From the NCBI GenBank assembly GCA_964458565.1, contig CAYWJO010000008.1:1-64000 (forward strand): a DNA stretch of 64,000 bases, written 5' to 3'. The notes beneath the pieces were generated by a model. The model saw only the letters and a program-made list of their open reading frames with translations, did not search any database and was not told where the DNA came from. Both the position numbers and the translations under genes were made by a program. Position 1 is the stretch's first letter; the number at the start of each line of letters is the position of its first letter. This stretch comes from an uncultured archaeon. Lineage in GTDB: Archaea > Asgardarchaeota > Thorarchaeia > Thorarchaeales > Thorarchaeaceae. Of the stretch, positions 33,870 to 63,864 are shown piece after piece.

Positions 33870-35051
33870 ATGATTTCTGAAAGTTATGACGTCGTTATCG
33901 TTGGAGGTGGACCAGCTGGATCAACTGCAGCTCGTGTTATAGCTGAGAATGGACTTAGTTGTCTCATTCTTGATAGACGTAGAAAAATTGGTATACCGGT
34001 CCAATGCGGAGAATTTCTTCCAACGCCTCGAGAGATGGTATCTCTCTTTCCGAATTCACCCCGAGCACAAAGATTGGTTGATATTCCTAAACATTTGATT
34101 AGGAACAAGTGTGATACCCTTTCATTAGTGTCTCCACGAGAAAAAGAATATGCTTTCAGTATGGAATTCAATGTCATCTCTAGAGACCTATTTGACTTTC
34201 ATCTATCAAATCAAGCTACACAGAAAGGAGCGACACTACTGCTTGAAGCTAATGTGCTTGGGATTCATCAAAAACACTTTGTTGTTTATCGACACCATGG
34301 AGAGACCAAGAAGGTTAAAGCAAAAACAATCATCGGAGCAGATGGACCAAATTCCGTGATTGCTCAATGTATAGGCAGTCGCTACCGAGACCCGCTACGA
34401 GATATGAGTTATTCACTTCAATATGTGATGGAAGGAATTAGTTGCGATTCTGATAGATGCACTATGTTCTTTGGCTCCAATGTTGCACCTGGTGGTTACA
34501 TGTGGATTATTCCTCAAAGTGATTCGAGAGCGAATGTTGGATTTGGTATACGCAGGAAATATGGGACCTCATTGAATCTTCGTGGTATGTTGAACCGCTT
34601 TCTTAAATCAAGGGCAAATCTGAGAAACGGTCAGATTATTCAAAGGGTTGGAGCATTGATTCCTGTGGGTGGACCTAAAAGAACAGTCCATGGCGAGCAT
34701 GTCATTCTCTTAGGAGATGCTGCTGGTCATGTTATGTCAACCAATGGTGGTGGAATTCCGACTGCATTAATTGGGGGTGAAATAGCGGGTGAAACCGTGG
34801 TGGCTGATTCTAAATCAGGTCACTCACTCAAGCAATATGAACAAGCGTGGAGATCCGAAATCGGTAGCGAGCTTTATAGATCACTTGCTATGTTGAGAGT
34901 AGCAGACATCGTAATGAATTCTGACGCACTGACAGAAATTGGAATGCACCTTGCTGGTTCTCGATATCTTGAGGATGTAATCCGCTGTCGTTATCCAAAA
35001 CCACTCGAAGTTCCAGGTCGTTTGTTGGAGTACTTCCTCACTAGAATATAA
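33870..35051 (+). CDS. Geranylgeranyl reductase family flavoprotein
   Basis: GGGPAG, PVQCGE, GADG, PGGYMWIIP, LLGDAAG..NGGGI. Confidence 0.9.
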   Translation: MISESYDVVIVGGGPAGSTAARVIAENGLSCLILDRRRKIGIPVQCGEFLPTPREMVSLFPNSPRAQRLVDIPKHLIRNKCDTLSLVSPREKEYAFSMEFNVISRDLFDFHLSNQATQKGATLLLEANVLGIHQKHFVVYRHHGETKKVKAKTIIGADGPNSVIAQCIGSRYRDPLRDMSYSLQYVMEGISCDSDRCTMFFGSNVAPGGYMWIIPQSDSRANVGFGIRRKYGTSLNLRGMLNRFLKSRANLRNGQIIQRVGALIPVGGPKRTVHGEHVILLGDAAGHVMSTNGGGIPTALIGGEIAGETVVADSKSGHSLKQYEQAWRSEIGSELYRSLAMLRVADIVMNSDALTEIGMHLAGSRYLEDVIRCRYPKPLEVPGRLLEYFLTRI

Positions 35052-36101
35052 TCAGTGCGTACGTATCGATATGAAATCGGCTAAATTCTGAAGTAACACC
35101 TTATTTATTAGCTCAACATTCTGTAGAGCGTTTTTAGCGGCATCAATATACGATTCAGTCTTTTTGATTGCTTTTTGAACTGATTTTGAACTATCTATCA
35201 ATTCAAGGATCGTATCGATTCTTCCGTCTTCTAGCTCCATAATGCATTTCTTGCGGCTTTCAGGAGATGCTGTATCTAGTGCTAGAACCATTACGTAATT
35301 TGTTCTTTTTCTTAGAATATCTGCTAATACCGGTTTTCCTAATTCTTCTTGACTAGCAGTAATATCCAATGTATCATCTCTGATTTGAAAAGCAATACCT
35401 ATGTTTCCTGCATATTCTTCTAATGCTCGGATTTGTTCATCTGTGGCTGAGCCAACTATTGCTCCTACCTTTACCGCTCCTTTCATAAATGATGCCGTCT
35501 TCTGTTCTACCATCCTGAGATATTCTTCTTTTCCGTAAGTACCAAGAGGTTGTGTAGAGAGTAAGATATCATTGGCTTCCCCTTCGCACATTGATATTCC
35601 AAGTGATGCTAGGCTTCTCAAACTATTTGGATCTGAATCTTGTGCAATCATTTTGACCGCATGGGCAACAAGAAGGTCTCCAGCAAGAACTGCCATCCTT
35701 GATCCGTATTTCTTATGTGCTGAACTTACTCCTCTTCTTAGAGTATCATCATCAATGACGTCATCATGAAGAAGACTTGCTGTTTGAACTAGTTCGATTG
35801 CCACTGCGTAAGGAAGAATTCGTTCAATGCTCCCTCCCACTGCCTCACAAGAAAGCATACAGAGTAAGGATCTCAGTCGCTTCCCACCCGCTCTGAGAAG
35901 ATGCATTGCAGTTTCATAAAGTACCTTTGGCTCTCCCATATTGTTGGCCATAAAAGACTCAATTTCAGCCTCAATAAGTGCCATTCTCTTGGATAATTCT
36001 TGGTTTCTTAGAAAAGGCTTCGAGATTTCATCAGTGGAAAATTCAACACCTTCAACAGACTTCTCTTGATTTTCGCCGTTGATGGTAGTTCTATCGTGCA
36101 T
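35052..36101 (-). CDS. trans-polyprenyl diphosphate synthase (likely long-chain); start near 36101 (track gives 36185)
   Basis: GGKRLR, ASLLHDDVIDDDTLRRG (FARM), KTA, FQIRDDTLD (SARM). Confidence 0.9.
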   Translation of the reverse strand: MHDRTTINGENQEKSVEGVEFSTDEISKPFLRNQELSKRMALIEAEIESFMANNMGEPKVLYETAMHLLRAGGKRLRSLLCMLSCEAVGGSIERILPYAVAIELVQTASLLHDDVIDDDTLRRGVSSAHKKYGSRMAVLAGDLLVAHAVKMIAQDSDPNSLRSLASLGISMCEGEANDILLSTQPLGTYGKEEYLRMVEQKTASFMKGAVKVGAIVGSATDEQIRALEEYAGNIGIAFQIRDDTLDITASQEELGKPVLADILRKRTNYVMVLALDTASPESRKKCIMELEDGRIDTILELIDSSKSVQKAIKKTESYIDAAKNALQNVELINKVLLQNLADFISIRTH

Positions 36102-36239
36102 TTTTGCATGACCCAATCCAATCTGATGATTACACATTGAAAGTATGAACCATATAAAAACAGTTAGTTGAAGTCTATCCTGCAATGATAGCTAGGAATC
36201 CTTTTGTACAAGGAGCGTTTCTCGGGTTTACGAGGAGAA

Positions 36240-37322
36240 ATGAATTCGACAGAAGAGAAACGGAATGTTTCAAAAATAAAAGCGTGGCTTCAGGAAGTAA
36301 AATTAGGAATCCTTCCTGCATCAACTGTACCAATCTTTACAGGCACTGCAGTAGCATATGGAATATACGGTGTCTTCTATTGGGATTTGTTTATCACAAC
36401 TCTCATCGCTGGGATTTTTCTCCATTGGGGTGCTGATGTCGCCAATGATTATTTTGACCATACAGAGGAGCAAACTGGAAGTGATGATATCAATGTGGAA
36501 TTCATCCGTCCATATAGTGGTGGGAGTAGAACCATTCAACAAGGACTTTTGACTCCCAAAGAGGTCGCTATAGGCTCAGTAGTCTGCTATCTCATTGCTG
36601 CAATTGTTGGTTTCTATGTTGTTTTCCGCGTTGGTTGGGTTGTTCTTGCATTTGGTCTCATTGGAGCATTTTTCGGTCTCGTATATTCTCTGCCTCCAAT
36701 CAGACTTGTTAAACGAGGTATTGGAGAACTAGTGATTGGAATAGTCTTTGGAGTTCTCATGGTTGTTGGGGCTTTCTATGTGCAGGTTCAGATCCCGATA
36801 GCTTTGACCTGGCCTTTGGTGATTCCATTTGACCAGTTCTATGAACCTTTCTTCATGTCAATTCCCATCTCAATTCTGATTGCATTAGTCTTGTATATCA
36901 ATGAGTTTCCTGATTACGTTGCAGACCGGGATGCAAACAAGCGTACCTTTGTTGTTCGTCTTGGACGCAAAAACGCTGCGAAAGGGTATACATTGCTCTT
37001 GTCAGCTGTCTATGTAGGAATCGTTTTGATGGTACTCTTGAATCTTATTCGAATCGAGGCACTTCTTGCTCTAGGCACATTGCCGCTCGCAGCACTTGGC
37101 ATAGTGACCACACTACGACATTATGATGAGAGTAAGAAATTAGGTCCTGCGAATTGGGCAACAATTGTTGGACATCTCTTCACAGGAATCTTCTTGACAG
37201 TTGGTTATGTATTCCATGGTTTAGCAGTAGCATTGGAAATTACGCTTATAGTTGGAATTGTCCTATTTGCATTTGTTTCCTTAATGGCATGGAAATTGGG
37301 TACTCCTTCAAAGGGCTCCTAA
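36240..37322 (+). CDS. menA: MenA-type UbiA-family prenyltransferase; likely start ATG 36240
   Basis: ANDYFDH..DD, YSGGSRTIQQG, NEFPDYVADRDANKRTFVVRLG; multiple TM helices; GAGGAG before the ATG. Confidence 0.75.
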   Translation: MNSTEEKRNVSKIKAWLQEVKLGILPASTVPIFTGTAVAYGIYGVFYWDLFITTLIAGIFLHWGADVANDYFDHTEEQTGSDDINVEFIRPYSGGSRTIQQGLLTPKEVAIGSVVCYLIAAIVGFYVVFRVGWVVLAFGLIGAFFGLVYSLPPIRLVKRGIGELVIGIVFGVLMVVGAFYVQVQIPIALTWPLVIPFDQFYEPFFMSIPISILIALVLYINEFPDYVADRDANKRTFVVRLGRKNAAKGYTLLLSAVYVGIVLMVLLNLIRIEALLALGTLPLAALGIVTTLRHYDESKKLGPANWATIVGHLFTGIFLTVGYVFHGLAVALEITLIVGIVLFAFVSLMAWKLGTPSKGS

Positions 37323-38542
37323 TTGTAGGTCTCTTCGAGTCCTTCCCACTCGAGACCCATTGCCTTAGCAACAAGAACAGCTAGGTCTATCGAGATTCTA
37401 TCTGAGCCAGCTTCTGGTAGTTGTCCTTTCATGAACTCGACACATGAGGGGCATCCTGATACGACATAATCTGCATTGGTTCTCTCGATATCATCGACTT
37501 TGAGTCTGTTGATATTGACTGCAAACTCATTGTCAATTGCCCGAAGAACTCCTCCTGAACCACAGCAATAGCAATTATTCTTGTTATGTGGTAGTTCTTC
37601 AAATTCTACGCCAGGGAGATATTCAATCACCTTTCTTGGCTCTTCAAAGAATCCTGAGTTACGACCTGCATCACATCCATCATGATAAGTGATTTTCATA
37701 TCAAGTGGAGTATTCAATTCTAGCTTGTTCTGATCAAGTAGGTCCTGATAGAACTGATAACCGTACAGAATTTCAAAATCGTGCTCAATTCCAAGTAATG
37801 AATGATATTCATGAGCCCACATCTTGTAACAACCTGGGCAATTTGTTACTATTTTTTCGACACCGAGTTTCTTGAATGCATCAATGTTATGCTGAGCAAA
37901 AGATTTCGCAGTTTCGAAATCACCAGTCATGATAACAGGAGCTCCGCAACACCACTCATCTTCTCCGAGCATTGTGAACTCTACATCTGCTTTATCCAGA
38001 ATTAGTGAAGTTGCAATTGTTGCTTGAATTGGTACGCCTTTGAATGATGATGCACATCCTACAAAGAAACCTATCTTAGATTCTTGATTCAATTTATCCA
38101 ACAACGCCTCCTCATCTGGATGCCAATAGGACCATCCTTCAACCCTATCCATCTGTGGTTGGCCATTGATATTGAAATCTTTCAACATGGTTTCACGAGT
38201 CATATTGAGTGCTTCTGGCCAAAGCCCTTTTTTGAGAAAATCAGCTCTAAGGCATTGATATACTTCCACAAAGGGGATGTCTACCTGACATATCTCTTCA
38301 CAGCCTCCACAGAGCGTACAACCGAAAATAGCATCTCTTAGTCCAATCAAACCCTCTGAAGGTCTAATTCTACCCTCCATCAAAGCTTTGGCAAGAACCA
38401 TCTTTCCCTTACCCGAATAACTGTCAAGTCGTTTCACTTTGTATGTAGGACAAGCACCATTACCAATCTGGCAGTAACTGCATTGTGCACATTGGTATGG
38501 AGTCTGTTGCAGTCCGTGCTGTTCAAGTGTGGGGAATTTCAT
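37319..38542 (-). CDS. GlcF/HdrD-like Fe-S protein (2 x 4Fe-4S plus two CCG domains); track start 38557
   Basis: CAQCSYC..CP, CTLCGGCEEIC, EWCCG, TNCPGC, YHDGC, CCGSGG, GCPSC. Confidence 0.9.
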   Translation of the reverse strand: MKFPTLEQHGLQQTPYQCAQCSYCQIGNGACPTYKVKRLDSYSGKGKMVLAKALMEGRIRPSEGLIGLRDAIFGCTLCGGCEEICQVDIPFVEVYQCLRADFLKKGLWPEALNMTRETMLKDFNINGQPQMDRVEGWSYWHPDEEALLDKLNQESKIGFFVGCASSFKGVPIQATIATSLILDKADVEFTMLGEDEWCCGAPVIMTGDFETAKSFAQHNIDAFKKLGVEKIVTNCPGCYKMWAHEYHSLLGIEHDFEILYGYQFYQDLLDQNKLELNTPLDMKITYHDGCDAGRNSGFFEEPRKVIEYLPGVEFEELPHNKNNCYCCGSGGVLRAIDNEFAVNINRLKVDDIERTNADYVVSGCPSCVEFMKGQLPEAGSDRISIDLAVLVAKAMGLEWEGLEETYN

Positions 38543-38720
38543 CCTATATCGCTCCAAATGTAGTCAAGTGATAATCTTTCTGGCGGAAATCGGACACAAA
38601 TACTTTTGGTCGTAGCAAGCTGCTGAGCGAAAATCAAATCAGTTCGCTAGCTTTTTATGTTGCCAGATTTCACAAGTGACTCACAAAGCAGCTCCACATT
38701 GAGCTACGGAGAGCGTTCTC

Positions 38721-40655
38721 ATGGGCTTGAAAGTGAAGTACGTGGAACAACTAAAAGAAATATTTGAGGATCGTCTCATTACTGCAAAGCACGAACTTCT
38801 CCTCCAAGGGATTGACGTGGGCACACTTCCAAAACAGGTTGGATGGCTCATGAATCCAAATCCAGATGCTGTGGTACAACCGATATCCCCTGAGGAAATT
38901 CAATCTCTATACAAGTTCGCCAATGAGACAAAGACCCCAATTGTACCTAGAGGGGCAGGGACATCAGGTTACGGGGGTGCGATTCCACGTAAAGGTGGAA
39001 TAGTTGTTGATATTCGTCGAATGGACAAAATCCTTGAAATCGACAAAGAGAATATGACTGTAACAGTGGAGCCAGGAATCACTTGGTCTAATCTACAGTT
39101 CGAACTAAGTCAACACGATCTTGATGTGCCATGTTATCCATCCTCCGGTCTCTCAGCAACAATCAGTGGATGGGTCGCTCAAGGTGGAGACGGTATCGGG
39201 TCTCTTAAGTATGGAAAAGTCAATGATATAGTTGAAGAGTTGCAGGTCGTTCTTCCTGATGGTAGAATAGTCACAACGAAAGATAACGACCTCTTCTGTG
39301 ACACCGAAGGAATTTTGGGAATCATCACAAAGATCACGCTTAAGATAAAACCACTCAGACCAATTCATCCTATTGTTGTCAGCTTTCCTGAGAACTACCA
39401 ACTAGTATTCGCTATTGAGCACATCTTAGAAGAAGGTCCATTACCCTACACAATGAAATTCAAGGAATCCAAATACATTGACTTGAAGAAGAGAGCTTGG
39501 GATAGCGATGAGCCCTTCCCATTCCCCGTACATCATGGTGTCTTGATGGTCGCCTATGAGGGTGATGATATAGAAGAAGGCTTTCGAGTTGTTGAAGCGG
39601 TCACAGAGAAATTTCAGGGGACCGTCTATGACCAGCATGTTGCTGACCATGAATGGGAAGAGAGATTCTACCCGATGAAGATAAAGAAACTTGGTCCTAC
39701 CCTTGTTGTTGGCCAAGCATTTGCACCACTTGAAACTCTTGAGGCGCTCCTTGATGATTTCCATTGGGAACAAGCTTCAGCAGAAGCAGGTATGGATGGT
39801 TGGGTGACGACGAAAAATGGTGTGACCCTCATGGGTTATTTCCTTGAAGATGAACGTCGAAGATTATTCATGCTCTCCTGGTCTCAAAGCTTCCTCATCT
39901 GGAAGCTCGCGCAAAGGCATGGTGGTCACCCTCACAGCACAGGCATATGGTTTGCCAACTATGCACCGCAGTACTTTGGAAAACGGAGACTCGCTAGGAT
40001 TCGTGCTGCGAAGACTGAACTTGACTCGAAGAACGTATCGAACCCTGGTAAGATATTCGCTTACTGGTTACCCTGGATGCTTCGAATTGGGAAGTATTTC
40101 ATGTGGATTACTTTCGACATGATGCGAAATGGATTCGGTAGAAGCGCACCCCCCTATCTTCGATTGTTGCAGAATATGCCTCCAATCAAATGGATTCTCC
40201 GATGGGGTAGGGCACACAGTCCTTGGCCGCTTCAGTATGGTCTAGGTTGTTGCATGGTAGAAGGTGCTGCCGCAGTTGCTTCAAGATGGGACTTCGAACG
40301 TTTCGGAATGCTACCACTCTTCGCACCAAGGCAGACCGATGTGTTATGGATTTCTGGATCCCTTACAAAGAAGATGGCAAAGCGTCTCAGAAGAATCTAT
40401 GAACAGATGCCTGAACCCAAGTTCGTTATTGCTTATGGCCAATGTGCTGCGAGTGGCGGCATGTTTTGGGATGGCTACAGTCTCATTTCACCACCTGACT
40501 CAGTTGTACCTGTAGATGTTTACGTACCTGGATGTCCACCAAAACCATCCGATCTCATGCGAGCACACATTATTCTACAGAACAAGATTCGCGCTGGTAC
40601 AACTCACTGGCAACAAAACTATGAGAATCAAGATGCTATGGGATTCTGGAAATAG
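38721..40655 (+). CDS. FAD-linked oxidoreductase (GlcD/VAO family) fused to a C-terminal NuoB-like domain
   Basis: PRGAGTSGYGG, TISGW, TEGILGIIT, NPGK; then GLGCCMVE..DFERFG..PRQTD..YEQMPEPKFVIAYGQCAASGG..VDVYVPGCPP in one frame. Confidence 0.9.
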   Translation: MGLKVKYVEQLKEIFEDRLITAKHELLLQGIDVGTLPKQVGWLMNPNPDAVVQPISPEEIQSLYKFANETKTPIVPRGAGTSGYGGAIPRKGGIVVDIRRMDKILEIDKENMTVTVEPGITWSNLQFELSQHDLDVPCYPSSGLSATISGWVAQGGDGIGSLKYGKVNDIVEELQVVLPDGRIVTTKDNDLFCDTEGILGIITKITLKIKPLRPIHPIVVSFPENYQLVFAIEHILEEGPLPYTMKFKESKYIDLKKRAWDSDEPFPFPVHHGVLMVAYEGDDIEEGFRVVEAVTEKFQGTVYDQHVADHEWEERFYPMKIKKLGPTLVVGQAFAPLETLEALLDDFHWEQASAEAGMDGWVTTKNGVTLMGYFLEDERRRLFMLSWSQSFLIWKLAQRHGGHPHSTGIWFANYAPQYFGKRRLARIRAAKTELDSKNVSNPGKIFAYWLPWMLRIGKYFMWITFDMMRNGFGRSAPPYLRLLQNMPPIKWILRWGRAHSPWPLQYGLGCCMVEGAAAVASRWDFERFGMLPLFAPRQTDVLWISGSLTKKMAKRLRRIYEQMPEPKFVIAYGQCAASGGMFWDGYSLISPPDSVVPVDVYVPGCPPKPSDLMRAHIILQNKIRAGTTHWQQNYENQDAMGFWK

Positions 40656-40925: not shown

Positions 40926-42305
40926 ATGGTTCGATATACTGACAATCCAACAGTCAATAAGCGGCTGGTTGCAGGTTACTACCTGTTCCTCTGCTTAGTT
41001 GGGTTCACCATTCTTCTAGGACCAACTGGTTCCGGAATCCCAATCACTCTGGTTGGCGATGACGGAAGATACGAGCACCAGCTCGCGTATCCGGGAATGG
41101 GTACGGACTCAGCTTCCTGTGGCGCTACAGACTGTCATGATGACCAGTGGGACTACTGGAATCATACCAGCCACGCAAATGACCTGATGTTCAATGGTAC
41201 ACATGTGTCACTTGGACATGGTTGGAGAGATCTTGCATCCTTCAACTCGTCATGTGCATGGTGTCATGCAACAGGCATAGACAATGAAACCTGGACTGAA
41301 GTAGGTGTCGGTTGTCTTGCTTGTCATGATGGTACATCACCCTATCTATCATATGATGGTGAAGTATGTGGAGATTGCCACAATCCAGAACATCACGAAA
41401 CTGCAACCTCATATCCTGATTGGGAGGCATCAGTCCATGCTGATTCAATGACGGATCTAAGAACAAGTGATCATGCCAGTTCATCATGTATGCACTGTCA
41501 GGCCACTGAATCTTTCATCCATCAACAGAATCCCGGAGACCTAGCTAGCTTTGTCAACACAACATTTGATGTTGATGGCGACTATACATCGATTTCTTGT
41601 CCAGCGTGTCACTCTGTACACTCAAACTGGTCAATGGTAGAAGGCAATGGTCTGCTTCGTGCAAACGATGCAACAGAGCTTTGTTCTCTCTGCCATGTTG
41701 GAGATCATCACCCACAGTACCAAGTGTGGGAAGGTGGTCCTCACGATTTAGCAGGTGTTGAGTGTATTAGCTGTCATGGCTATCAGCTTATTTGGTCATC
41801 CCATGGTGGATGGACCCCAGTCACTAACCACACATTTGCTCTCAATGCGACAGCAGCTTGTGGTCAGGATGGCTGCCATGAAGGTGATAGAGCCGATTGG
41901 GCAATTACCATGATGGAAGCACGCGCTGACGCGTACACAGCTCTAACTGGAGAAATCGAAGACGAAGCTACAAGTTTAGCAGCTTTAGTCGATGCGTACA
42001 ATGTAACCACTGGTGCCAACTACTCGCTTTCAGCTGATGTCTATGAAGCTATTGACGCAGCTGAACTGCAGGTTGACATCTACAATGCTGACAAATCCAT
42101 GGGCATGCATGATGGTGCTGAAACATTCACTACCCTCAATGCTGTCTTTGCTGATTTACTCAATGCAAAAGCCATGTTCTATAAGCTGTCATCGACAGCA
42201 GCTCCTACTGGAGCATCTATGGACATGATTATTATCATTGGTGGTGCAGCAGGTGGTCTTGTACTTGGTTTGGTTCTAGGAGTATTGGTCGGACGACGTA
42301 GATAA
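40926..42305 (+). CDS. Membrane-anchored multiheme cytochrome c (6 CxxCH, 2 Cx4CH, 1 CxxCQ)
   Basis: CGATDCH, CAWCH, CLACH, CGDCH, CMHCQ, CPACH, CSLCH, CISCH, CGQDGCH; helical C-domain with DKSMGMHD; N- and C-terminal hydrophobic helices. Confidence 0.9.
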   Translation: MVRYTDNPTVNKRLVAGYYLFLCLVGFTILLGPTGSGIPITLVGDDGRYEHQLAYPGMGTDSASCGATDCHDDQWDYWNHTSHANDLMFNGTHVSLGHGWRDLASFNSSCAWCHATGIDNETWTEVGVGCLACHDGTSPYLSYDGEVCGDCHNPEHHETATSYPDWEASVHADSMTDLRTSDHASSSCMHCQATESFIHQQNPGDLASFVNTTFDVDGDYTSISCPACHSVHSNWSMVEGNGLLRANDATELCSLCHVGDHHPQYQVWEGGPHDLAGVECISCHGYQLIWSSHGGWTPVTNHTFALNATAACGQDGCHEGDRADWAITMMEARADAYTALTGEIEDEATSLAALVDAYNVTTGANYSLSADVYEAIDAAELQVDIYNADKSMGMHDGAETFTTLNAVFADLLNAKAMFYKLSSTAAPTGASMDMIIIIGGAAGGLVLGLVLGVLVGRRR

Positions 42306-42331
42306 TACGAAATGGAGAAACCACGGATGGG

Positions 42332-42370
42332 AACGGATGTAAATCATCCGTTTACCTCCTATTTTTTTTC
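42332..42370 (+). terminator. Hairpin plus T-tract after the multiheme cytochrome gene
   Basis: AACGGATG taaat CATCCGTT then T8. Confidence 0.6.
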
Positions 42371-42490
42371 CATTAGGCCTTCCACTTGGAACTAGGCACT
42401 CTCTTTTTACCATTCTGATCTATTCTATGAACATCCATATGATGTACGTTCATAACTCATGATTTCACAATTTAAGGAGTATATTGACAA

Positions 42491-44659
42491 ATGAGCAAGA
42501 GACACGCAATGGTCGCACTAATACTGGCACTCTTTATGACCAGTATCGGAAGTGCAGGAGTACAAAACACTGGAATTAAGGTCTCGATGATTGACAATTC
42601 CAAATCTCCACTCTTAAGTCAAACAGTCGCGAATGTAAGCAATTACCGCGATTATGCATTATCAACAAGTAGTCTATTACTGAGATACCTATTTGCTTCG
42701 AGTGATGGATTTGTGTATCACTTTAGTGATTTCAATTGGAGTCAGTTTAGTGGATTGCAGCTCTTAAGTAATTACTATTGGAGCATAGCAGGTCTTCAAA
42801 GAATATATAATATAACATCCAATTCCACTTTAATTCCAATAATCAGTAAAGCCGCAAATATGATGGTGCAGCTCTTTAAGGATCCTGACTATCCTGGTTA
42901 TTACGTCAATCTTTACGATGAATTGAGGATAAGTGAATCAAAGAGAGCTGGTATTCAAGCTTATGCCTACTGGGCTTTGGATATTGCTGAATCTTTGAAT
43001 AGTTCTCTTGATTTTTCAGCTGAGAAGCAATGGGCTATTGATTGTTTAACACAGATGCTTTATGATCCGATTTATGGTGGATTCTATTTCTATACTGCTC
43101 GCAATGGCTCATTAGATCTTACACCTAATCCAGAAGATGTGTATCCTCATGATGGAAAGCGTCTGGATCATATGGCATTAGGTGCTTCAGTTCTTTATGA
43201 TGCAGGTGCTGAAACAGGTAATTCGACCTACATTCAAATCGCAGATAGAGCGATGTCCTTTATGATGAAGAATATGAGGTCATGGAACCAGTCATATTAT
43301 TTCGGATTGAAATTAGCCACAGCAAGAAACGGTAGTGTTGCTAATATCCCTAGCTACGAGCGTTCAGCGGAATCAGTTCAATCTGACATCAATGCGATTG
43401 CTTTGAGAACTTTTGTAAAAGCCTATACAGATACAGGTAATTCATCCTATTTGAATTTCGCAATGGACACTAGAAATGCTTTGCTTCGTTTTAGCTGGGA
43501 CCAATTATATGGTGGTTGGTTTGCAGAAACGCTATCAGGAGAGCCCTATGACCCAGTATTCGATGAGGATGTCAGATACTACAAATATGCTGAGGTTCAA
43601 TTTCAAGCAGTAATGGCATTAGGATCTATATACGAAATTACGAAAGAATACGACAATATTCAGCTGATATTCGATACCCTAGAAATTTCAACAAAGATGT
43701 GGGATTATCCGATAGGAGGATTTGTACAGAATACTAATCGCAATGGTGAGTTTCTCAATGTTGAGTGGCAAATTCATTTGACCGCAATTCAGAATCAAGC
43801 AATATTGGCATTTGAGCGTATTTGGAGTTATGGACTTCCTGTTGTTTCATATGTGCAGGTTGCTCCAACTAATCCTCGCCCTGAAGATGAGGTGTTCATC
43901 TCCACAATCGCCTTGGATGACGATGGAATTGATATAGTGATGGTGAATTATACAGTGACCGTAGGTTCAACTGACACAGATGTATCGGTATCTCTTCTGC
44001 CAAATCCCGAGGTGGGCGGCGTCTATAATACCTCTATCGGAACTCTACCTGATGCTGCGAATGTTAATTTCTTTATCATTGCTAATGATACCATAGGAAA
44101 TCAGTTTGTTGCAGGAATCTATCATTTTGCCGTTCGTGCTGACATATGGGAACCTGTCGTTCACTATCGTACCGTTTATCCTAGTGCAAATCCTCAACCA
44201 GGTGAGACAGTCATTGTTGAGATTGGAACCTATGAATTTCCTACTCATTGTGGAATTACATGTTGTACACTCTACTGGCGTCTTAATGAGGGGGAATTTA
44301 CTGCTATGAACATGACAGCAGTAGGTATTGATGAGGACTATATTGTATGGCAATGTGTCCTTGGAGTCTTCAACGTTGGTGATGAGATTTCTTTGTACTG
44401 CATCGCAGAGGATGAAGATGGAAATGTTGGACAGAGCCGGTATGCAACAATCAAAATACAGAGTCCAGTTTCAACTGTTACTCCTGTGGGATTGTATCAA
44501 TTTGCCATGATTGTTGGATTAGCTGCTGCCCCAGCGGGATATGTTGGTTACAAATACCTTGGTCGGAAACGAGTGATGGGTGAAGAGCGTAGGCTCAAAA
44601 AGGAGGCTAAAAAGAGAGCAAGACGGAAACGTAGTGCTCGATCTAGATCCAGAGATTAA
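42491..44659 (+). CDS. Secreted, membrane-anchored protein with probable (alpha/alpha)6 toroid and Ig-like domains
   Basis: Signal peptide; repeated [YW]DxxxGG[FW] turns (YDPIYGGF, WDQLYGGW, WDYPIGGF); C-terminal TM helix and very basic tail. Confidence 0.55.
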   Translation: MSKRHAMVALILALFMTSIGSAGVQNTGIKVSMIDNSKSPLLSQTVANVSNYRDYALSTSSLLLRYLFASSDGFVYHFSDFNWSQFSGLQLLSNYYWSIAGLQRIYNITSNSTLIPIISKAANMMVQLFKDPDYPGYYVNLYDELRISESKRAGIQAYAYWALDIAESLNSSLDFSAEKQWAIDCLTQMLYDPIYGGFYFYTARNGSLDLTPNPEDVYPHDGKRLDHMALGASVLYDAGAETGNSTYIQIADRAMSFMMKNMRSWNQSYYFGLKLATARNGSVANIPSYERSAESVQSDINAIALRTFVKAYTDTGNSSYLNFAMDTRNALLRFSWDQLYGGWFAETLSGEPYDPVFDEDVRYYKYAEVQFQAVMALGSIYEITKEYDNIQLIFDTLEISTKMWDYPIGGFVQNTNRNGEFLNVEWQIHLTAIQNQAILAFERIWSYGLPVVSYVQVAPTNPRPEDEVFISTIALDDDGIDIVMVNYTVTVGSTDTDVSVSLLPNPEVGGVYNTSIGTLPDAANVNFFIIANDTIGNQFVAGIYHFAVRADIWEPVVHYRTVYPSANPQPGETVIVEIGTYEFPTHCGITCCTLYWRLNEGEFTAMNMTAVGIDEDYIVWQCVLGVFNVGDEISLYCIAEDEDGNVGQSRYATIKIQSPVSTVTPVGLYQFAMIVGLAAAPAGYVGYKYLGRKRVMGEERRLKKEAKKRARRKRSARSRSRD

Positions 44660-44677
44660 TGGTTGGAGGTAAAAATT

Positions 44678-47092
44678 ATGTTTGACTTCGGAACAATATT
44701 CTTAGTGATTTCAGTGATACTGGCAATGATTGATGTATTCATCTTAGTCATTGGACCAAAAATACTGTCTGAGGAGGATTCAGATAGATACTCATTCCTC
44801 TTCTCAGGAGGCGCATTTCTCGCTACTGTCGGTGCATTTCTCTTCATGGCTGTACTGATTTTCACGAATGATATCTCATACCAGTATGTGGTTCAGACAA
44901 CAAAGAGTACAGCACCATTATTGCTGAAGCTATCTGCCCTTTGGGCTGGACAAGCTGGATCCCTACTCTTTTGGGCATTTCTAGCTTTTACACTCTACTT
45001 TGGGTTTAGGTACCTTATCCGCGGATATGAAGATGATATCATAGTATATCGTGCTTCTGCGATTATGGGAGTTTCCTCAATTCTGATTGTCATTAACGCT
45101 ATCATCTCATCTCCATTCGCACCGTATCAGGGACCTGATATCTCAGATGGATATGGTCTCAACCCTCTCCTATCAACTATCTTGAATGTCATTCATCCTC
45201 CGATTGTGTTTATTGCATACGCTCTTCTAATGGTGCCATTTGCCATTAAGCTCGCAGGTTTTACAGTAAGATCCGAAGAGCGACGGGATGAACCAATTCC
45301 AATCGTTGAGAGATATGCTTCATTCACAACTTCCTTTGCTTGGCTTATGCTTTCTTTAGGCATTGTCATTGGAGCCTACTGGGCATACAGCACACTTGGT
45401 TGGGGTGGTTACTGGGGGTGGGACCCCGTCGAAACTTCGTCGTTGATTCCTTGGTTGCTCCTTACAGGCTTTTATCATGCAAAAGCGATTTTCAAGGATA
45501 ATGATGTTCTTAGGGATTCTTTTCTTGTTTTCTCGTACATAACGGTATTATTCGCCACATGGGTCACTCGAAGTGGAGTTCTCACTTCAGTTCATGGATT
45601 TACAATAACGGTTGTAAGCTGGACAATGTTTCTTACTCTGCTCGGGAATTTCATTTTCAGTATCTTACTTATTACACATGCAGGACTCAAAGATATGTCA
45701 GATGATGAGGAAGAGAGTGGGTGGCCAAGTATTTTCTCACTTCAAGATCTAAGGAAGTTTTCTATTTTCATTGCACTTATTGGTATACTTGTTGTCTCGT
45801 TTACTTCGTTTGCTGGAGTTGCTATGCCTGCTGCTATCAATATTGGTACTGCGATTTTCGATCCTACTAATCTAGAGAACAATATGGTTGGAATAAACAT
45901 AGAATTCTTCTGGTTGGGTTTCTATATTGCATCCTTCTTCCTCTTTGTTTCTGCATTCTATTGTATGAGGAATACTGCTATTTCAGCTCGAACAAAAAGT
46001 GTGATAGCACTAATTCTCATCGTTATTGGAGCAATTATCGGACTGTTCTCTTATGCTTATCCGGATTCATTACTCCCCACAAACTCGCTGATAGCAAACA
46101 TGCTTGTTCCCCTAGCGATTGGAGCAATAGTCTATCTAGGGGTTACATTTGTCCGATATATGGCTGGTAGAGAATCAGGTGCATTTACAATGCGTCAAAT
46201 GGGTAGACTAATGTTACATCTAGGTCTAGTGATGCTTCTACTTGGTGTATTCATGAGTTCGAATATTGAGTACCAATCCAGACAAGACTTCATAAGAAAT
46301 ATTCCGCAAGAGATTGCTCCGGGGCTAGAGTTACGAGTCAGTGGTATTCAACTGTCTGAAGATGGTTTGACGCTTTATGTTGCAATTCAATTATTCCAGG
46401 ATAACATGTCTATAGGAGTTGGTGTCGCATCACTCACGTTATTTCCTGGGTATGAAAACCCCGTTTCAAACGTGTATATACATTCAACAGCTGGACAAGA
46501 TATCTTCATTGCTATTGCAGCGTACTCTGGGTCCACAGGGAATATGGTAACACTTCAGACCAAGGTCCTTCCATTGATATCATTTGTATGGCTAGGTATC
46601 TTCTTCATGATTATGGCTATACTCCCATCTTTCGTCATGGAAGCATCCGGATTGTTCAAGGCAGTCAAGCGAAAACATGCACACCTTTATGGTGAGGAGG
46701 AAGAGGAGGCTATCGAGACAGATATGCTGCATCATCTGGAAATGCTACTGAAATCTGAGGTTCCTGCGGAATTAATCCGAAGTCTCAGCATGACTCCACT
46801 ATTACTCACACAAGGTAGGTACTCGGAAGCAGAGTTGGAGCTTAGAACAGTAACTGAACTCTATCCCGGTTATATGAGAGCTTGGTATCTCTTTGGTGCA
46901 GTATTAAATATCCAAAGGAAATATGCTGAGGCTGAAGCTGCATTCAGACGAACTGTGGAACTTGATTCCGAATTCGGTGAAGCATGGTACATACTTGGCA
47001 ATACCCTGAGAAATTTGGGTAAGGATGAAGATGCAGATGAGGCATTTCAACAAGCTAAGGTATTAGGATACAATCCTCGTTCCGAAGAGTGA
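44678..47092 (+). CDS. ccmF: Cytochrome c heme lyase CcmF with C-terminal TPR extension; likely start ATG 44678
   Basis: WAGQAGSLLFW, GLNPLL..IHPP, WAYSTLGWGGYWGWDPVE, TRSG..SVHGF; TPR repeats AWYLFG..AEAAFRR, AWYILG..ADEAFQQA. Confidence 0.92.
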   Translation: MFDFGTIFLVISVILAMIDVFILVIGPKILSEEDSDRYSFLFSGGAFLATVGAFLFMAVLIFTNDISYQYVVQTTKSTAPLLLKLSALWAGQAGSLLFWAFLAFTLYFGFRYLIRGYEDDIIVYRASAIMGVSSILIVINAIISSPFAPYQGPDISDGYGLNPLLSTILNVIHPPIVFIAYALLMVPFAIKLAGFTVRSEERRDEPIPIVERYASFTTSFAWLMLSLGIVIGAYWAYSTLGWGGYWGWDPVETSSLIPWLLLTGFYHAKAIFKDNDVLRDSFLVFSYITVLFATWVTRSGVLTSVHGFTITVVSWTMFLTLLGNFIFSILLITHAGLKDMSDDEEESGWPSIFSLQDLRKFSIFIALIGILVVSFTSFAGVAMPAAINIGTAIFDPTNLENNMVGINIEFFWLGFYIASFFLFVSAFYCMRNTAISARTKSVIALILIVIGAIIGLFSYAYPDSLLPTNSLIANMLVPLAIGAIVYLGVTFVRYMAGRESGAFTMRQMGRLMLHLGLVMLLLGVFMSSNIEYQSRQDFIRNIPQEIAPGLELRVSGIQLSEDGLTLYVAIQLFQDNMSIGVGVASLTLFPGYENPVSNVYIHSTAGQDIFIAIAAYSGSTGNMVTLQTKVLPLISFVWLGIFFMIMAILPSFVMEASGLFKAVKRKHAHLYGEEEEEAIETDMLHHLEMLLKSEVPAELIRSLSMTPLLLTQGRYSEAELELRTVTELYPGYMRAWYLFGAVLNIQRKYAEAEAAFRRTVELDSEFGEAWYILGNTLRNLGKDEDADEAFQQAKVLGYNPRSEE

Positions 47093-50652: not shown

Positions 50653-52383
50653 CTAATGGAATATCTTCCTGAACAGACGCATGAATGGTCCGCCCATTGT
50701 CAGAGTAAATGGCATTGGTACATAGTTTGCTACTTCAACCACTGCTGTGCCTGCAATCAACCCAATGATAACAGCCTGGAAAACTGTCCAGAGGTCTTTT
50801 ATCATTAGCCAGCTAACAAATCCTGCTAATAGATCAGGTACAATGAGTCCTGCTACCCATAATCCGATAGGTGCAGCAATCGCGGCCCCAATTAGTATCA
50901 AGAGATTCATTCTCAGTGAAAGACGCATCGGTCCAGGAAATACCGCATGTGGATTCAGCTTACCCTTTGGGTCAGTCTTCTTCTTTAATTCCGCCATCTG
51001 AGCATACCGGTCCTCTCCAAAGTATCTCCGTGAATGTGATACGTTCCACATTCCAATTGAATACGGACGTCCACCATTCTTGAGACCAATATCAATGAAG
51101 TCCAATGATCTATACCATCCCATCAGGAAGGATATTTTCTTACGTTCATCATCTAGGAACCAGCAAAGAACAGCCACTTGTTTATCGATGTTGACAGCTC
51201 CTTCAGCTGCAAATCTTTCACCCTTGAAATGTTTCTCAATTTGTTCCAAGAAGAGATCCATCTGGTCCAGAGGAACATACACTTCGGATGGTGCAACACT
51301 TGGTCCAAGCCTTTTCACTCGCATTGGATAAAACCTTTCAGCCCATTCATGATGGGCGATCTCATCAGATTCGATAGTACCTCCATGGTAACTGACTATC
51401 TTCTTGAAATCCTCCACATCTTGAGTGATTTGCTCGTCGATATCTTCGTATGTACATGAGATTACCCAGGGGCCGGTGGTATCTGGAGCAAGTCCTAACT
51501 CTGCCAGCATTCCGTAGAAAACATCAGTGACAAAGTGAAGATAGAATGGGTTGGTGGTTTCCTTGATGTGCATACAAGCTGCAAGCATCGATTCCTTGTC
51601 CTGAAATGATGCAGCTAGAGGTTTTACTGTCCTTAGTGGAATAATCTTCAAAACAACTTTGGTAATTATACCCAAAGATCCGTTACTATCAATGAAGAGA
51701 TCTGTCAGGTTGAATTTCTTTTCAATTTCAGGAGACCAGTAGTATGTGTCATTTCCTGGAAAGTATGTATATTCCTTCTTGATGAGATTATCTACAAGTC
51801 CTTCGGGAGCATCTGCAGTTCTTATGATTTCTCCATTTGGTAACACGATTTCTAGGTCAACAACTTGTTGTTCAACACCACCATATTTCGTGCTACCTAT
51901 TCCAGTGCCACCTGCAGCTACCCAACCTCCAACAGTTGAAGCTGGTGCACTAGATGGATATGCACATAGAGTTAGGCTTTGTTCCTCAAGAGCTTCTAGT
52001 AGAGTGCTCCAAATTATTCCTGCTCCAACTTCGATTGTCATATTGTTCCTATCGATACTGTGGATTTCATTCATTCGTGTTGTTTCCACAATTAATCCGC
52101 CTACCGTGGGAATGGCACCTCCATAACCTGACGTACCATGACCCCTAGGAACGATAGGAATCTTATTGGCAAGACAATATTGAATCAGTTTTGAAACGAC
52201 TTCCGAGGATGTAGGTTGAGCAACTCCATCAGCTTCTGTGTAGAGCAAATCATTGACAATACCTGGAAGTGAGGCTATGTCATGGGAGTATAATTTCCTC
52301 ATGTAATCGTCAGCTGAGAAGAAGTCTTCACCAACGATATCAGCAATATCTTGTTTTTGATTGTCCTTGAGCATTGTATTCAC
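50653..52383 (-). CDS. FAD-linked oxidoreductase (GlcD-like) with C-terminal TM helices
   Basis: PRGHGTSGYGG, STVGGW, SNGSLGIIT, DPKGKLNP; hydrophobic C-terminal ~85 aa. Confidence 0.88.
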   Translation of the reverse strand: MNTMLKDNQKQDIADIVGEDFFSADDYMRKLYSHDIASLPGIVNDLLYTEADGVAQPTSSEVVSKLIQYCLANKIPIVPRGHGTSGYGGAIPTVGGLIVETTRMNEIHSIDRNNMTIEVGAGIIWSTLLEALEEQSLTLCAYPSSAPASTVGGWVAAGGTGIGSTKYGGVEQQVVDLEIVLPNGEIIRTADAPEGLVDNLIKKEYTYFPGNDTYYWSPEIEKKFNLTDLFIDSNGSLGIITKVVLKIIPLRTVKPLAASFQDKESMLAACMHIKETTNPFYLHFVTDVFYGMLAELGLAPDTTGPWVISCTYEDIDEQITQDVEDFKKIVSYHGGTIESDEIAHHEWAERFYPMRVKRLGPSVAPSEVYVPLDQMDLFLEQIEKHFKGERFAAEGAVNIDKQVAVLCWFLDDERKKISFLMGWYRSLDFIDIGLKNGGRPYSIGMWNVSHSRRYFGEDRYAQMAELKKKTDPKGKLNPHAVFPGPMRLSLRMNLLILIGAAIAAPIGLWVAGLIVPDLLAGFVSWLMIKDLWTVFQAVIIGLIAGTAVVEVANYVPMPFTLTMGGPFMRLFRKIFH

Positions 52384-53567
52384 TACTCCAATCCTAATGC
52401 TTCGGTAACAATTTCTGAGAGATCTTTGAAGACAATCTCTGATTCCATACTTTCAAGACCATCGTTGAATGACATTGTGCAAGACGGGCATTCGCTTGCT
52501 AGGAATTCCGCCCCGGTCTTCTCTGCAGCTTTTAGTCGTCTTTGAGAGATTCTAATAGACATAAGCGGATTTGTACCTTTGAGTAGTCCGCCACCACCAC
52601 AGCAATCTGCTTTATTCCGATTGTGCTTCAACTCCTTCAATTCCAGTCCAGGAATTGCTTTGAGAACTTCACGAGCGGGATCGTAGATATTCTGATGGCG
52701 ACCCAGTTCACATGGGTCATGCCATGCCACCTTGTGATTATAGGGTTTCGTAAACTTGATTTTTCCTTCCTGTATCTTCTTCAAAATAAATTGTGAGAAA
52801 CTAAGAAATTCGAATCCTTCAATTGCTGCGTGTCCTAGAAGATGTTCATATTCTTCGGAAAATGCTCGGTGACAACCTGGACAATTGAATACTACTGTCT
52901 TTACTCCAAGTTTTCTTAGCTTTGAGAGATGGTGCTCTGCTGTTTCTCTTGCTTTTTCAAATTCACCCGCAACAAAGTACGGATTCCCACAGCAATATTC
53001 TTCCTCTCCTAAAATTGTGAAGTCAAGTCCAAGATGGTTGAATATTTTGATTGTGTTTTCTCCCAGCTTTGCCAAAGTTCCCTTGAATGAGATATTGCAA
53101 CCAGCAAAATACGCTACTTCTGCTTCGACATCAATTCTGTCCTCAACAAGATCATCAATCATGTCAGTCCAGATAGTACGGTCAGATTGGTCAAGATCCA
53201 TTATGTTGTGGCTATTCTCAATCGATTGGTCCAAGAATTTCACAGTCTCTGGCCATTCATCTAGATTACCTATTTCATTTCGAATAAGTTGCCAGAATCT
53301 CAGTAGGGGTATGTTTGTCTGACAAATATCTTGACATGCTCCACATAATGTACATTTGAAAATACGGTCTGCGAAATCAGCGGGAATTGGTTTTCCTTCC
53401 TTTATGAGGGATTTCAGTTGATATAACTTCCCTCGCGGTGATTGAGAGTCCCATAAAGTGTCTAAGTATGCTGGGCAGACAAAGGTGCAATATCCACATC
53501 TTGCACATACTGTGGGCTCGATGTCTAGGGTTTCCTTTTTCAGTGCTTCAAAGAGATCGTTTCCCAT
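52383..53567 (-). CDS. GlcF/HdrD-like CCG Fe-S protein
   Basis: CARCGYCTFVCP, CTLCGACQDIC, YCCG, NCPGC, HDPC, CCGGGG, ECPSC. Confidence 0.9.
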   Translation of the reverse strand: MGNDLFEALKKETLDIEPTVCARCGYCTFVCPAYLDTLWDSQSPRGKLYQLKSLIKEGKPIPADFADRIFKCTLCGACQDICQTNIPLLRFWQLIRNEIGNLDEWPETVKFLDQSIENSHNIMDLDQSDRTIWTDMIDDLVEDRIDVEAEVAYFAGCNISFKGTLAKLGENTIKIFNHLGLDFTILGEEEYCCGNPYFVAGEFEKARETAEHHLSKLRKLGVKTVVFNCPGCHRAFSEEYEHLLGHAAIEGFEFLSFSQFILKKIQEGKIKFTKPYNHKVAWHDPCELGRHQNIYDPAREVLKAIPGLELKELKHNRNKADCCGGGGLLKGTNPLMSIRISQRRLKAAEKTGAEFLASECPSCTMSFNDGLESMESEIVFKDLSEIVTEALGLE

Positions 53568-53588
53568 TTTGTTCTCCTCTTAATTTCT

Positions 53589-54092
53589 TCATGGCCAAGG
53601 TAGACCTATCCAATGGAGTAATGGGTCCAGAATAGATTCTCCATAAACAGCAACACCACCCAAAGCTCCCAGGAAGACCATAAGCATCCCGCCGATGATG
53701 GCTACAATGCCATAGGTTAAGAATGATACTCTGCCAACCCAGATACGGTCTCCGACTTTGGCACGTACGACTACAAGAAATATGTAAAGCTCTGTTGCGA
53801 TGACTGACCAGAGAATCTTGAATCTCATAATTGGATCCGCAATAAGAATATCAACAGGCCAAGCTGGTTCCATAAATCCAGTTACCATTCCTGCAATTAG
53901 ACCAATGAGTCCTATTATATTACCCCAGAAAATGAAGATGTCTAGCTCATGGAATATCTTTGCCATTCTTGTGCCGGGTGTTCGAATCGCTTCGCGGTAC
54001 ATCAATCGAAGCAACAAATTAATCATGACCACAACTGCAACTGCTGCAAGAATTCCTGTATGGAAGTGGACAAATGTTGGATGAATTGCCAT
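53589..54092 (-). CDS. DUF2231-like 4-TM membrane protein; likely start ATG 54092
   Basis: MAIHPTFVHFH, AGMVTGF, GALGGVAVYG pattern; AGGAGG upstream. Confidence 0.65.
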   Translation of the reverse strand: MAIHPTFVHFHTGILAAVAVVVMINLLLRLMYREAIRTPGTRMAKIFHELDIFIFWGNIIGLIGLIAGMVTGFMEPAWPVDILIADPIMRFKILWSVIATELYIFLVVVRAKVGDRIWVGRVSFLTYGIVAIIGGMLMVFLGALGGVAVYGESILDPLLHWIGLPWP

Positions 54093-54094
54093 TA

Positions 54095-57836: not shown

Positions 57837-57857
57837 AGGGAGCTTAAAGAAGTCTTG

Positions 57858-57879: not shown

Positions 57880-57893
57880 TCGTTTCAGAATGA

Positions 57894-59222: not shown

Positions 59223-59226
59223 TTTC

Positions 59227-63318: not shown

Positions 63319-63864
63319 ATGAAACTGCGAGAAGATACTGATCAGTACTGCCTGCTGTGGGTTGGAGTACTTATCCTTGCAACTTACTATTTCAATTTCC
63401 TGTTTCTTTTTAGTATAGGATCGGCGGACTTTACACCATTCGTCACATTATCATTACCTCTTCTCGGAATACCCCTCGTACTTATCTCGACATTCATGGG
63501 ATACTTACGTCCTGAGAGAGGGAAAGCAAAACCGAATGCATTAGCACTCTCTGTCGTTTTTTCGCTTTTCTACATGCTCTCCTGCATATTTGCATATGAT
63601 TTATTCAATGCTTGGAATTTCTCGAATTTCATAGAGAGTATGGGCTTTGCATCTTGGGGTATCGGTTCTGCAATCCTAACAGCTGGTGGCCTATCAATTA
63701 TGCAATCTTTTGAAGACAGCGTAGAGGGAGACATTCTTGATCTTAGTAAACTACACTATCCTCCTGGTGAGATTCCAGAACCAGAATCAGAGAATAGTGC
63801 TCAACCTGAAATAGCAGAACCTGATGTACCTGAAGCGAAAGAAGAGCCAATCCCTGAAGAATAG
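63319..63864 (+). CDS. Hypothetical 4-TM membrane protein with acidic Pro/Glu tail
   Basis: Four hydrophobic segments, EIPEPESE..EEPIPEE tail. Confidence 0.6.
   Translation: MKLREDTDQYCLLWVGVLILATYYFNFLFLFSIGSADFTPFVTLSLPLLGIPLVLISTFMGYLRPERGKAKPNALALSVVFSLFYMLSCIFAYDLFNAWNFSNFIESMGFASWGIGSAILTAGGLSIMQSFEDSVEGDILDLSKLHYPPGEIPEPESENSAQPEIAEPDVPEAKEEPIPEE

Follow-up and report, generated by a model that had tools for sequence, protein, structure and literature searches.

A flavoprotein fused to NuoB, the candidate N2 subunit of a headless complex I-like pump in Thorarchaeia

Complex I-type pumps swap their input heads (NuoEFG, FpoF or ferredoxin adaptors) as well as their terminal chemistry (H+, sulfur or quinone), and to our knowledge the swapped part has always been a separate subunit. 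The closest described systems are the headless 11-subunit complexes, namely Fpo with FpoF, cyanobacterial NDH-1 with ferredoxin, and the proposed Fpo-like:HdrD system of the Methanomassiliicoccales, all of which have a complex I-like membrane arm and no NuoEFG. Here we present a gene from an uncultured archaeon of the Thorarchaeia in which a complete flavoprotein is joined, in a single reading frame, to NuoB, the N2-cluster subunit of complex I. The gene lies in the window, by which we mean the whole stretch of 64,000 nucleotides that was analysed (C8:1-64000, where C8 is contig CAYWJO010000008.1 of a 3.7 Mb genome that is 93% complete). The predicted complex resembles the headless homologues in its membrane arm and in its lack of NuoEFG, and as in the proposed Fpo-like:HdrD system an HdrD-type protein is implicated as partner; unlike all of them, it would carry its extra redox enzyme covalently on NuoB and not as a separate subunit that docks at NuoI, and unlike Fpo it has a VAO-fold flavoprotein in place of FpoF and four antiporter-like subunits. 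We put at roughly 60% the probability that a headless complex I-like pump has the fusion protein as its N2 subunit, and that this protein tethers a flavoprotein/HdrD-like module to the pump as a substrate-specific electron input.

We found no description of such a fusion in the literature, which agrees with the earlier note on this DNA, made from the sequence alone, whose author knew of no GlcD-NuoB fusion. The accessible part of a survey of archaeal gene fusions lists NuoB-C and B-C-D fusions and not FAD-NuoB (PMC11237513), and the accessible part of a survey of Asgard complex I makes no mention of a FAD-NuoB fusion (10.1101/2024.07.04.601786). The wiring of a second redox enzyme onto a pump by way of NuoB is apparently undescribed. 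The closest published ideas are the alternative heads of headless complex I, the Fpo-like:HdrD hypothesis, and the reported Hdr-type domains on MBH-like complexes of other Asgard lineages.

The earlier note had described one open frame with a GlcD/VAO-type FAD protein, an aromatic amphipathic linker, and a NuoB domain starting at about position 40188. All of these parts are borne out by domain models and composition, and the gene is laid out as follows.

38721..40655, + strand: whole fusion gene (P0001), a single open frame of 644 aa made up of flavoprotein, amphipathic linker and NuoB
38862..40055, + strand: VAO/GlcD-fold flavoprotein module, with FAD_binding_4 at residues 48-186 and FAD-oxidase_C at residues 218-445 (Pfam)
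40056..40187, + strand: aromatic amphipathic linker, residues 446-489, from composition, hydrophobic moment and an AlphaFold2 helix
40188..40604, + strand: NuoB (N2-cluster) domain, residues 490-628, with NCBIfam NuoB models above cut-off
40248-40253, 40443-40445 and 40533-40535, + strand: NuoB cysteine codons, for Cys510 with Cys511, Cys575 and Cys605 respectively

Three Pfam domains are recognised in the protein: FAD_binding_4 (E 3.7e-41), FAD-oxidase_C (E 6.8e-11), and Oxidored_q6 (PF01058; residues 511-615, E 5e-25, 88 bits against a cut-off of 27). Over residues 490-628 the more specific NuoB models of NCBIfam are also passed, NF005012 with 187.4 bits (cut-off 116) and TIGR01957 with 177.9 bits (cut-off 142.7). 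The linker is 23% aromatic, against 11% across the whole fusion protein, and its hydrophobic moment of about 0.5, against a protein mean of 0.22, marks it as amphipathic; hydrophobicity analysis of the protein found no transmembrane segment in it. In the AlphaFold2 model the flavin module is predicted with high confidence (pLDDT 85-98), and residues 449-484 form one long helix with pLDDT 51-65.

The C-terminal 140 residues match the subunit known as NuoB, Nqo6, PSST (NDUFS7) or NdhK at 151-156 bits. Among solved structures the closest relatives of the domain are NdhK (156 bits) and Nqo6 (151), followed by MbsJ (118), MbhJ (105) and HycG (89). All four cysteine ligands picked out in the earlier note, Cys510, Cys511, Cys575 and Cys605 (in GLGCC, GQC and GCPP), are invariant in 46 full-length homologues, in whose alignment no other part of the fusion protein is as conserved as the NuoB domain (55% invariant columns). 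The first two of these cysteines are adjacent, as in complex I, and not spaced as the CxxC of hydrogenases. The domain also carries the DFERFG, PRQxD and VPGCPP motifs, and its contact motifs, like those of the cluster, are intact. It is therefore like NuoB/Nqo6 in its tandem-Cys, GxC and GCPP ligands, and in relatives its gene stands with nuoC, D, H and I; it is unlike NuoB/Nqo6 in the 490-residue flavoprotein and linker at its N-terminus. The domain is predicted to bind the [4Fe-4S] N2 cluster and to join the peripheral arm.

The fusion is not peculiar to one assembly. A search of 5.8 billion proteins returned about 45 clusters of 644-667 residues that are 72-86% identical over their full length; their named members are Thorarchaeota, plus one labelled Hodarchaeota, and public records mostly annotate them as plain 'NuoB'. 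An exhaustive search of 1.84 billion representatives confined the full FAD-NuoB architecture to a single 50%-identity cluster and found no second, independent fusion of this kind. Six-frame searches placed the fusion in 59 of 87 Thorarchaeia species genomes, spanning 12 genera, a count that takes in both uninterrupted fusions and pieces truncated by contig ends. Since the frame is kept across these 59 genomes, which come from many samples, an artefact of assembly is excluded, and the occurrence of the fusion in other genomes, which the earlier note had left to be checked, is settled in its favour. In one genome (G023:C5:93253-95189) a frameshift, either real or due to an assembly error, divides the gene into overlapping frames for residues 1-433 and 430-644.

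In the window's own genome the nuo operon begins with nuoA at contig position 64543 and runs nuoA, J, K, C, D, H, I, M-like, L, M, N, the last four being antiporter-like; the genes for NuoD, NuoH and these four subunits are on C8, a short way past the window's end. The earlier note's remark that no other nuo or fpo gene occurs in the window is literally true, but nuoA starts only 543 bp past the window end. No nuoB was found among the operon proteins with Pfam and NCBIfam models. In four other genera (G062, G009, G021 and G018, of which G009 is a single 3.16-Mb contig) the fusion gene itself heads the operon: it is followed by a small membrane-protein gene that we call unk181, a gap of 0.5-1.2 kb, nuoA-J-K-C-D-H-I and the four antiporter-like genes, and none of these four operons contains a separate nuoB. 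In at least 30 genomes the NuoD orthologue follows the fusion gene on the same strand, about 3.5 kb downstream. Across the 87 genomes the fusion and the NuoD orthologue occur together in 56, both are missing from 22, and only 9 are discordant; eight of the nine are 65-88% complete, and in the ninth, G046 (95% complete), the fusion gene is cut by a contig end. An outgroup from another family (G001) has the order nuoJ-K-B-C-D-H-I with a separate 152-aa nuoB, which is 51% identical to the fused domain. Compared with this canonical nuoB, the Thorarchaeial gene has moved from the nuoK/nuoC interval to the head of the operon, and in the window's genome to a site 24 kb away.

The membrane-protein gene and the operon NuoD have these positions.

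63319..63864, + strand: unk181 (P0267), a membrane protein that has an acidic tail and 3 or more hydrophobic helices
C8:66527-67666 (L013:4528-5667): operon NuoD

The unk181 gene, which directly follows the fusion gene in the four genera (35-41% identity), stays with nuoA in the window's genome. Its product belongs to no Pfam or NCBIfam family, and the protein atlas gave nothing informative on it; the protein is a probable accessory subunit. A 23-kb block, seen in this genome only, parts the fusion gene from unk181 and nuoA. Three of its genes lie directly after the fusion gene (40926-47092, + strand); they encode a putative multihaem protein of 459 aa that resembles cytochrome c552/NrfA, a protein of 722 aa without a known family, and a CcmF whose C-terminus bears TPR repeats. 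The block also holds three more flavoprotein/CCG gene pairs, listed further below. Machinery for c-type cytochromes is not usual in this group.

The genome's own nuoB complement was another point that the earlier note had wanted checked. The genome holds only three Oxidored_q6 genes, the fusion and two small subunits of group 3 hydrogenases. One of the latter belongs to a four-gene, sulfhydrogenase-like group 3b hydrogenase (L014, C1:193266-197232), and the other to an Mvh-type (group 3c) hydrogenase that adjoins MvhD, HdrA and an HdrB-like CCG gene (L015, C22:7137-12660). Some fusion-bearing genomes do have further stand-alone NuoB-like genes, in which the small subunit has a CNGC motif and adjoins a large subunit with RICGIC and DPCYSC; these motifs mark them as parts of a true group 4 [NiFe] hydrogenase, distinct from the pump. 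We considered these small genes as the operon's NuoB and rejected them as CxxC-type subunits beside a true [NiFe] large subunit. Because the operon has no nuoB, the other NuoB-like genes belong to hydrogenases, the fusion heads the operon in four genera, and the outgroup nuoB is separate, the fusion protein is, on genomic evidence, the NuoB subunit of the Thorarchaeial complex I-like pump and its sole NuoB. The earlier note had proposed an input module that docks on a headless complex; the associated complex is indeed headless, but the protein is more than a docking partner, being predicted to be the NuoB subunit of that complex. No match to NuoF (PF01512) turned up in the genome, which is 93% complete, or in its nuo operon. 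This supports the reading of the complex I homologue as headless, without NuoEFG, as the earlier note had said of many archaeal homologues, and it sets the complex apart from respiratory complex I proper.

A compact NuoB/C/D/H-like cluster of the hydrogenase kind occurs in another genome (L020, G003:C3:46000-62000, at 6513-9933), where both NiFe motifs in the large subunit identify a true group 4 hydrogenase. Clusters of this type are present in some Thorarchaeia genomes and have no counterpart in that of the window. Stand-alone NuoB genes close to the fused domain also exist. Three of them (P0269, P0270 and P0271, 63-68% identical to it) were tried as a pre-fusion state and rejected, their neighbours being an insertion sequence (IS) element or hyp genes. 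No flavoprotein gene lies beside any of these three or beside P0207, which comes after nuoA. At the level of loci, stand-alone NuoB genes 58-68% identical to the fused domain are found at L023:10001-10561, L022:1330-1911 and L027:812-1369, and a quick tree makes them its sister group; one is an orphan by hypE, C, F and D, one lies by an IS transposase, and one follows nuoA in the canonical way.

Beside the fusion gene, and divergent from it as the earlier note had observed, lies a gene for an iron-sulfur protein with CCG domains, and beyond that a prenyltransferase gene.

38558..38720, no strand: the 163 bp that part the divergent CCG and fusion genes, by open-frame coordinates
37319..38557, - strand: HdrD/GlcF-like Fe-S protein of 412 aa, with Fer4_8 and 2x CCG (Pfam), divergent from the fusion gene
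36204..37322, + strand: MenA-like UbiA prenyltransferase (Pfam UbiA), beside the CCG gene

In the iron-sulfur protein two ferredoxin-type CxxCxxCxxxC motifs precede two CCG domains, an arrangement shared with HdrD, GlcF and GlpC, and across 7 orthologues and paralogues the cysteines of neither part vary. Its best NCBIfam matches (TfrB, LdhH, GlpC and TmcB) are all below cut-off, and no curated equivalog model is passed. Orthologues adjoin the fusion gene in G009, G018 and G021. When the flavin domain (residues 1-448) was modelled in complex with this protein, three runs gave ipSAE values of 0.86, 0.86 and 0.89, and the best control gave 0.00; this is a level that 58 of 80 solved complexes attain, as do 2 of 110 mismatched pairs. 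The three runs share at least 95% of their contacts, the partner has pLDDT of at least 89, and the modelled interface sets its ferredoxin-like part (residues 18-93) on the FAD-binding domain. The modelling supports binding of the flavin domain to the divergently encoded HdrD/GlcF-like protein. Since fused homologues of both proteins exist, the pass may reflect likeness to those one-chain forms.

The flavin module itself is well placed by fold. Its best Foldseek matches are D-lactate dehydrogenases, LctD and alkyl-DHAP synthase, with TM scores of 0.82-0.86 by target; sequence matches are mostly limited to the FAD-binding half. It thus resembles GlcDEF (glycolate dehydrogenase), YdiJ (D-2-hydroxyglutarate dehydrogenase) and LctD/D-LDH in fold (TM about 0.85) and in having a Fer4 + 2x CCG partner like GlcF or the C-terminus of YdiJ. 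Relatives of the flavin domain have been fused independently to other modules, to a Fer4+CCG module in proteins of about 1000 aa and to NrfD in a Hydrothermarchaeota protein. An unfused orthologue of 498-503 residues, 55-57% identical, occurs in the Thorarchaeota genus g14; it has the aromatic amphipathic tail, and one such protein (P0051, 498 aa) aligns to fusion residues 6-492. The tail therefore belonged to the flavoprotein before the fusion, and it probably holds the flavoprotein on the membrane surface.

Taken together, these genomic data establish, at the level of encoded proteins, that a headless complex I-like pump has a flavoprotein tied permanently to its N2 subunit. We propose that NuoA, J, K, C, D, H and I make up the pump together with four antiporter-like subunits and without NuoEFG; that its resident nuoB left the ancestral site between nuoK and nuoC and became the C-terminal part of a membrane-surface flavoprotein, of the VAO/D-lactate-dehydrogenase fold, that already existed; and that this flavoprotein would work with the HdrD/GlcF-like protein, with its two [4Fe-4S] clusters and two CCG domains. 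The amphipathic helix would tie this two-protein redox module to the base of the peripheral arm, where it would stand in for NuoEFG or FpoF as a substrate-specific electron input. Electrons would then pass from a cytoplasmic substrate to FAD, on through the iron-sulfur clusters of the HdrD-like protein to the NuoI/NuoB cluster chain, and finally to a membrane-soluble acceptor, which would be reduced in the NuoB/NuoD/NuoH pocket as the antiporter-like subunits translocate ions. This scheme infers the protein's place in the complex, its pairing with the HdrD-like protein, the way in which the electrons run, and the nature of substrate and acceptor. Our preference for the flavoprotein and its partner as an electron input is accordingly a tentative one, held at a little short of even odds; it is preferred because the relatives of the fold are dehydrogenases that feed membrane carriers, and the retention of NuoI, which leaves the Fe-S chain to N2 intact, also counts for it.

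Several observations weigh against the proposed scheme. The His/His/Glu metal site (HxxDGNxH, GEHGxG) that glycolate (GlcD), D-lactate and D-2-hydroxyglutarate dehydrogenases share is missing from the flavin domain of the fusion: in an alignment with E. coli GlcD and YdiJ, the motifs HAGDGNMH and GEHGIG of GlcD are replaced by GWVTTKNG and by GGH-PHSTG with a 3-residue deletion. With the catalytic metal site gone, a substrate-dehydrogenase role is one suggested by the fold. The label 'GlcD' in the earlier note was thus right as to fold and to the FAD_binding_4/FAD-oxidase_C pair, and overstated as to the active site, in which the protein is unlike both GlcD and YdiJ. In the same alignment both motifs are also missing from the Fer4+CCG relatives of about 1000 aa, from the NrfD fusion and from paralogues in the window, and neither was found in any of the 267 flavin-domain relatives collected (0/267). 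By its sequence, the flavin module is a distinct subfamily that has been joined repeatedly to electron-transfer or membrane modules, and its substrate is probably not a simple 2-hydroxyacid handled in the known way. The window paralogues and their neighbours are these.

50653-52383, 54916-56640 and 60359-61930, - strand: paralogous VAO-fold flavoprotein genes, each beside an HdrD-like Fer4+2xCCG gene
52383-53567, 56616-57836 and 59227-60351, - strand: the HdrD-like Fer4+2xCCG genes beside these paralogues
57894-59222, - strand: amine-oxidase-like flavoprotein

Two flavoproteins of this region (50653-63095) have long hydrophobic C-terminal extensions, and the flavoproteins there share the loss of the GlcD metal site.

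The acceptor side adds further difficulties. In all five Thorarchaeial NuoD orthologues examined, the equivalent of the quinone-site Tyr87 is Met, in ERLCM(P/L)E (residues were mapped by alignment to NdhH and MbsL with the assignments of PMC7684303, in T. thermophilus numbering), a difference from respiratory complex I proper. The operon NuoD matches MbsL best (204 bits, ahead of NdhH with 177 and Nqo4 with 171), the subunit of MBS, the sulfane-sulfur reductase of Pyrococcus furiosus (PDB 6U8Y), whose three-Cys catalytic cluster arises from a shortened loop of the small subunit (PMC7684303). It is like MBS in that it has lost the Tyr and kept the equivalent of C85, the Cys preceding the Met. 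Unlike MBS, it keeps the His38 equivalent (in GPQHVAAHG) and has lost the second Cys, its NuoB has the tandem Cys of complex I where the shortened CxxC loop of MbsJ leaves one Fe free, and the membrane arm is of the NuoA/H/J/K/L/M/N type and not of the Mrp type. The C-terminal NiFe cysteines are gone as well, and with RLCM and DPY(V/P)G where group 4 [NiFe] hydrogenases have RxCGxC and DPCxxC, the protein lacks their set of four NiFe-binding Cys. The outgroup G001 NuoD (L021:6062-7150) keeps both MBS-type cysteines yet pairs with a tandem-Cys NuoB. Since its NuoD is MbsL-like without the Tyr and its small subunit has the complex I tandem Cys, the Thorarchaeial enzyme is intermediate by sequence between complex I and MBS; its pocket is not safely called a quinone site, and the acceptor may not be an ordinary quinone.

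The search for a menaquinone ring pathway in the window's genome points the same way, with no MqnA/D (PF02621) and no MenB above cut-off, and UbiE-type methyltransferase matches are too generic to be read as such a pathway. The earlier note's account of NuoB with NuoD as a quinone site is doubtful here on all these grounds. A prenylated carrier is plausible: the best NCBIfam matches of the UbiA prenyltransferase are DHNA (1,4-dihydroxy-2-naphthoate) polyprenyltransferases, at 133 bits and below the cut-off of 264, an orthologue also lies near the CCG/fusion pair in G021 and G018, and the enzyme possibly makes the membrane carrier that the complex uses. In the window it forms a trio with a geranylgeranyl-reductase-family gene and a polyprenyl synthase (33870-37322), beside the CCG gene. 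The remaining objections concern geometry and gene order. The whole-chain AlphaFold2 model has a pTM of 0.70 and leaves the orientation of the flavin domain relative to NuoB unfixed; the N-terminus of NuoB probably sits on the membrane side of the arm, well away from NuoI, where electrons usually enter; in G062 the CCG gene and the fusion gene are not neighbours; and in the window's genome the 24 kb between the fusion gene and nuoA mean that co-transcription is not to be assumed there.

The same assembly could instead run the other way, from ferredoxin through NuoI and N2 to the HdrD-like protein, FAD and an acceptor in the cytoplasm, for instance a disulfide or an oxo or enoyl compound. In that case it would act as an ion-pumping ferredoxin:X oxidoreductase, much as has been proposed for Fpo-like:HdrD in the Methanomassiliicoccales. 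This would sit well with a NuoD that lacks the quinone-site Tyr and is nearest to MbsL, whose pump reduces no quinone, with the missing menaquinone ring pathway, and with a partner of HdrD architecture whose best named match is TfrB of thiol:fumarate reductase; moreover, headless complexes elsewhere probably accept ferredoxin at NuoI, and Hdr-type domains are reported on MBH-like complexes of other Asgard lineages. Yet the characterised enzymes of the VAO/GlcD fold, and YdiJ as the fused Fer4+CCG form, are dehydrogenases that feed membrane carriers, and a MenA-like prenyltransferase is a conserved neighbour. The paralogue pairs in the window, which lie by putative cytochrome c and membrane genes (of which only the flavoprotein and CCG domains are confirmed), likewise fit donation to a membrane chain, and the coupling of ion pumping is hard to see if electrons exit from the NuoB/NuoD pocket. 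We regard the reversed direction as unlikely, perhaps, though the strongest competitor to an electron input.

It is less likely still that the fusion is a mere tether with no direct Fe-S wiring, so that a self-sufficient substrate:carrier oxidoreductase sits at the mouth of the carrier pocket and hands over reduced carrier locally, one use of which might be reverse electron flow to ferredoxin driven by the proton-motive force. Such an arrangement would suit the unfused P0051, which already has the same amphipathic tail, the paralogous flavoproteins that work without NuoB, and a linker modelled as a long low-confidence helix that fixes no domain orientation. The strict conservation of the fusion and the very high conservation of its NuoB domain suggest more than loose co-localisation, however, and no genome was seen to have a split pair together with the operon. 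Finally, the 24 kb to the operon and the absence of nuo genes from the window might be taken to mean an enzyme that stands alone outside any nuo complex, or an artefact. The earlier note had offered a stand-alone quinone-reducing dehydrogenase as its other option, which misfits the operon membership: four other genera have the fusion gene first in the nuo operon, which contains no other NuoB, and the uninterrupted frame recurs throughout the 59 genomes. We know of no function for NuoB without NuoD, and consider this last explanation highly improbable.

Against these alternatives the electron input remains our preferred reading. Across most of an Asgard class a whole flavoenzyme is welded to the N2 subunit, which offers a concrete, testable case of how a redox module is recruited to a pump, and which bears on the long-debated Fpo-like:HdrD idea and on energy conservation in poorly understood anaerobes. 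There is also a consequence for annotation, since these genes are now called plain 'NuoB', and a metabolic reconstruction with the entry 'complex I present, ferredoxin- or NADH-dependent' would misdescribe the lineage. A bolder claim, which we hold to be possible but doubtful, is that the pocket of the pump has gone beyond ordinary quinone chemistry, with the flavoenzyme/HdrD-like module built onto NuoB as redox partner, the pump being either substrate-driven without NADH or ferredoxin, or ferredoxin-driven and reducing a soluble acceptor. If a non-quinone pocket and a built-in module are indeed combined here, this would be the first substrate oxidoreductase fused to a Q-module, and a new branch in the series of MBH, MBS and complex I, in the archaeal group nearest to eukaryotes.

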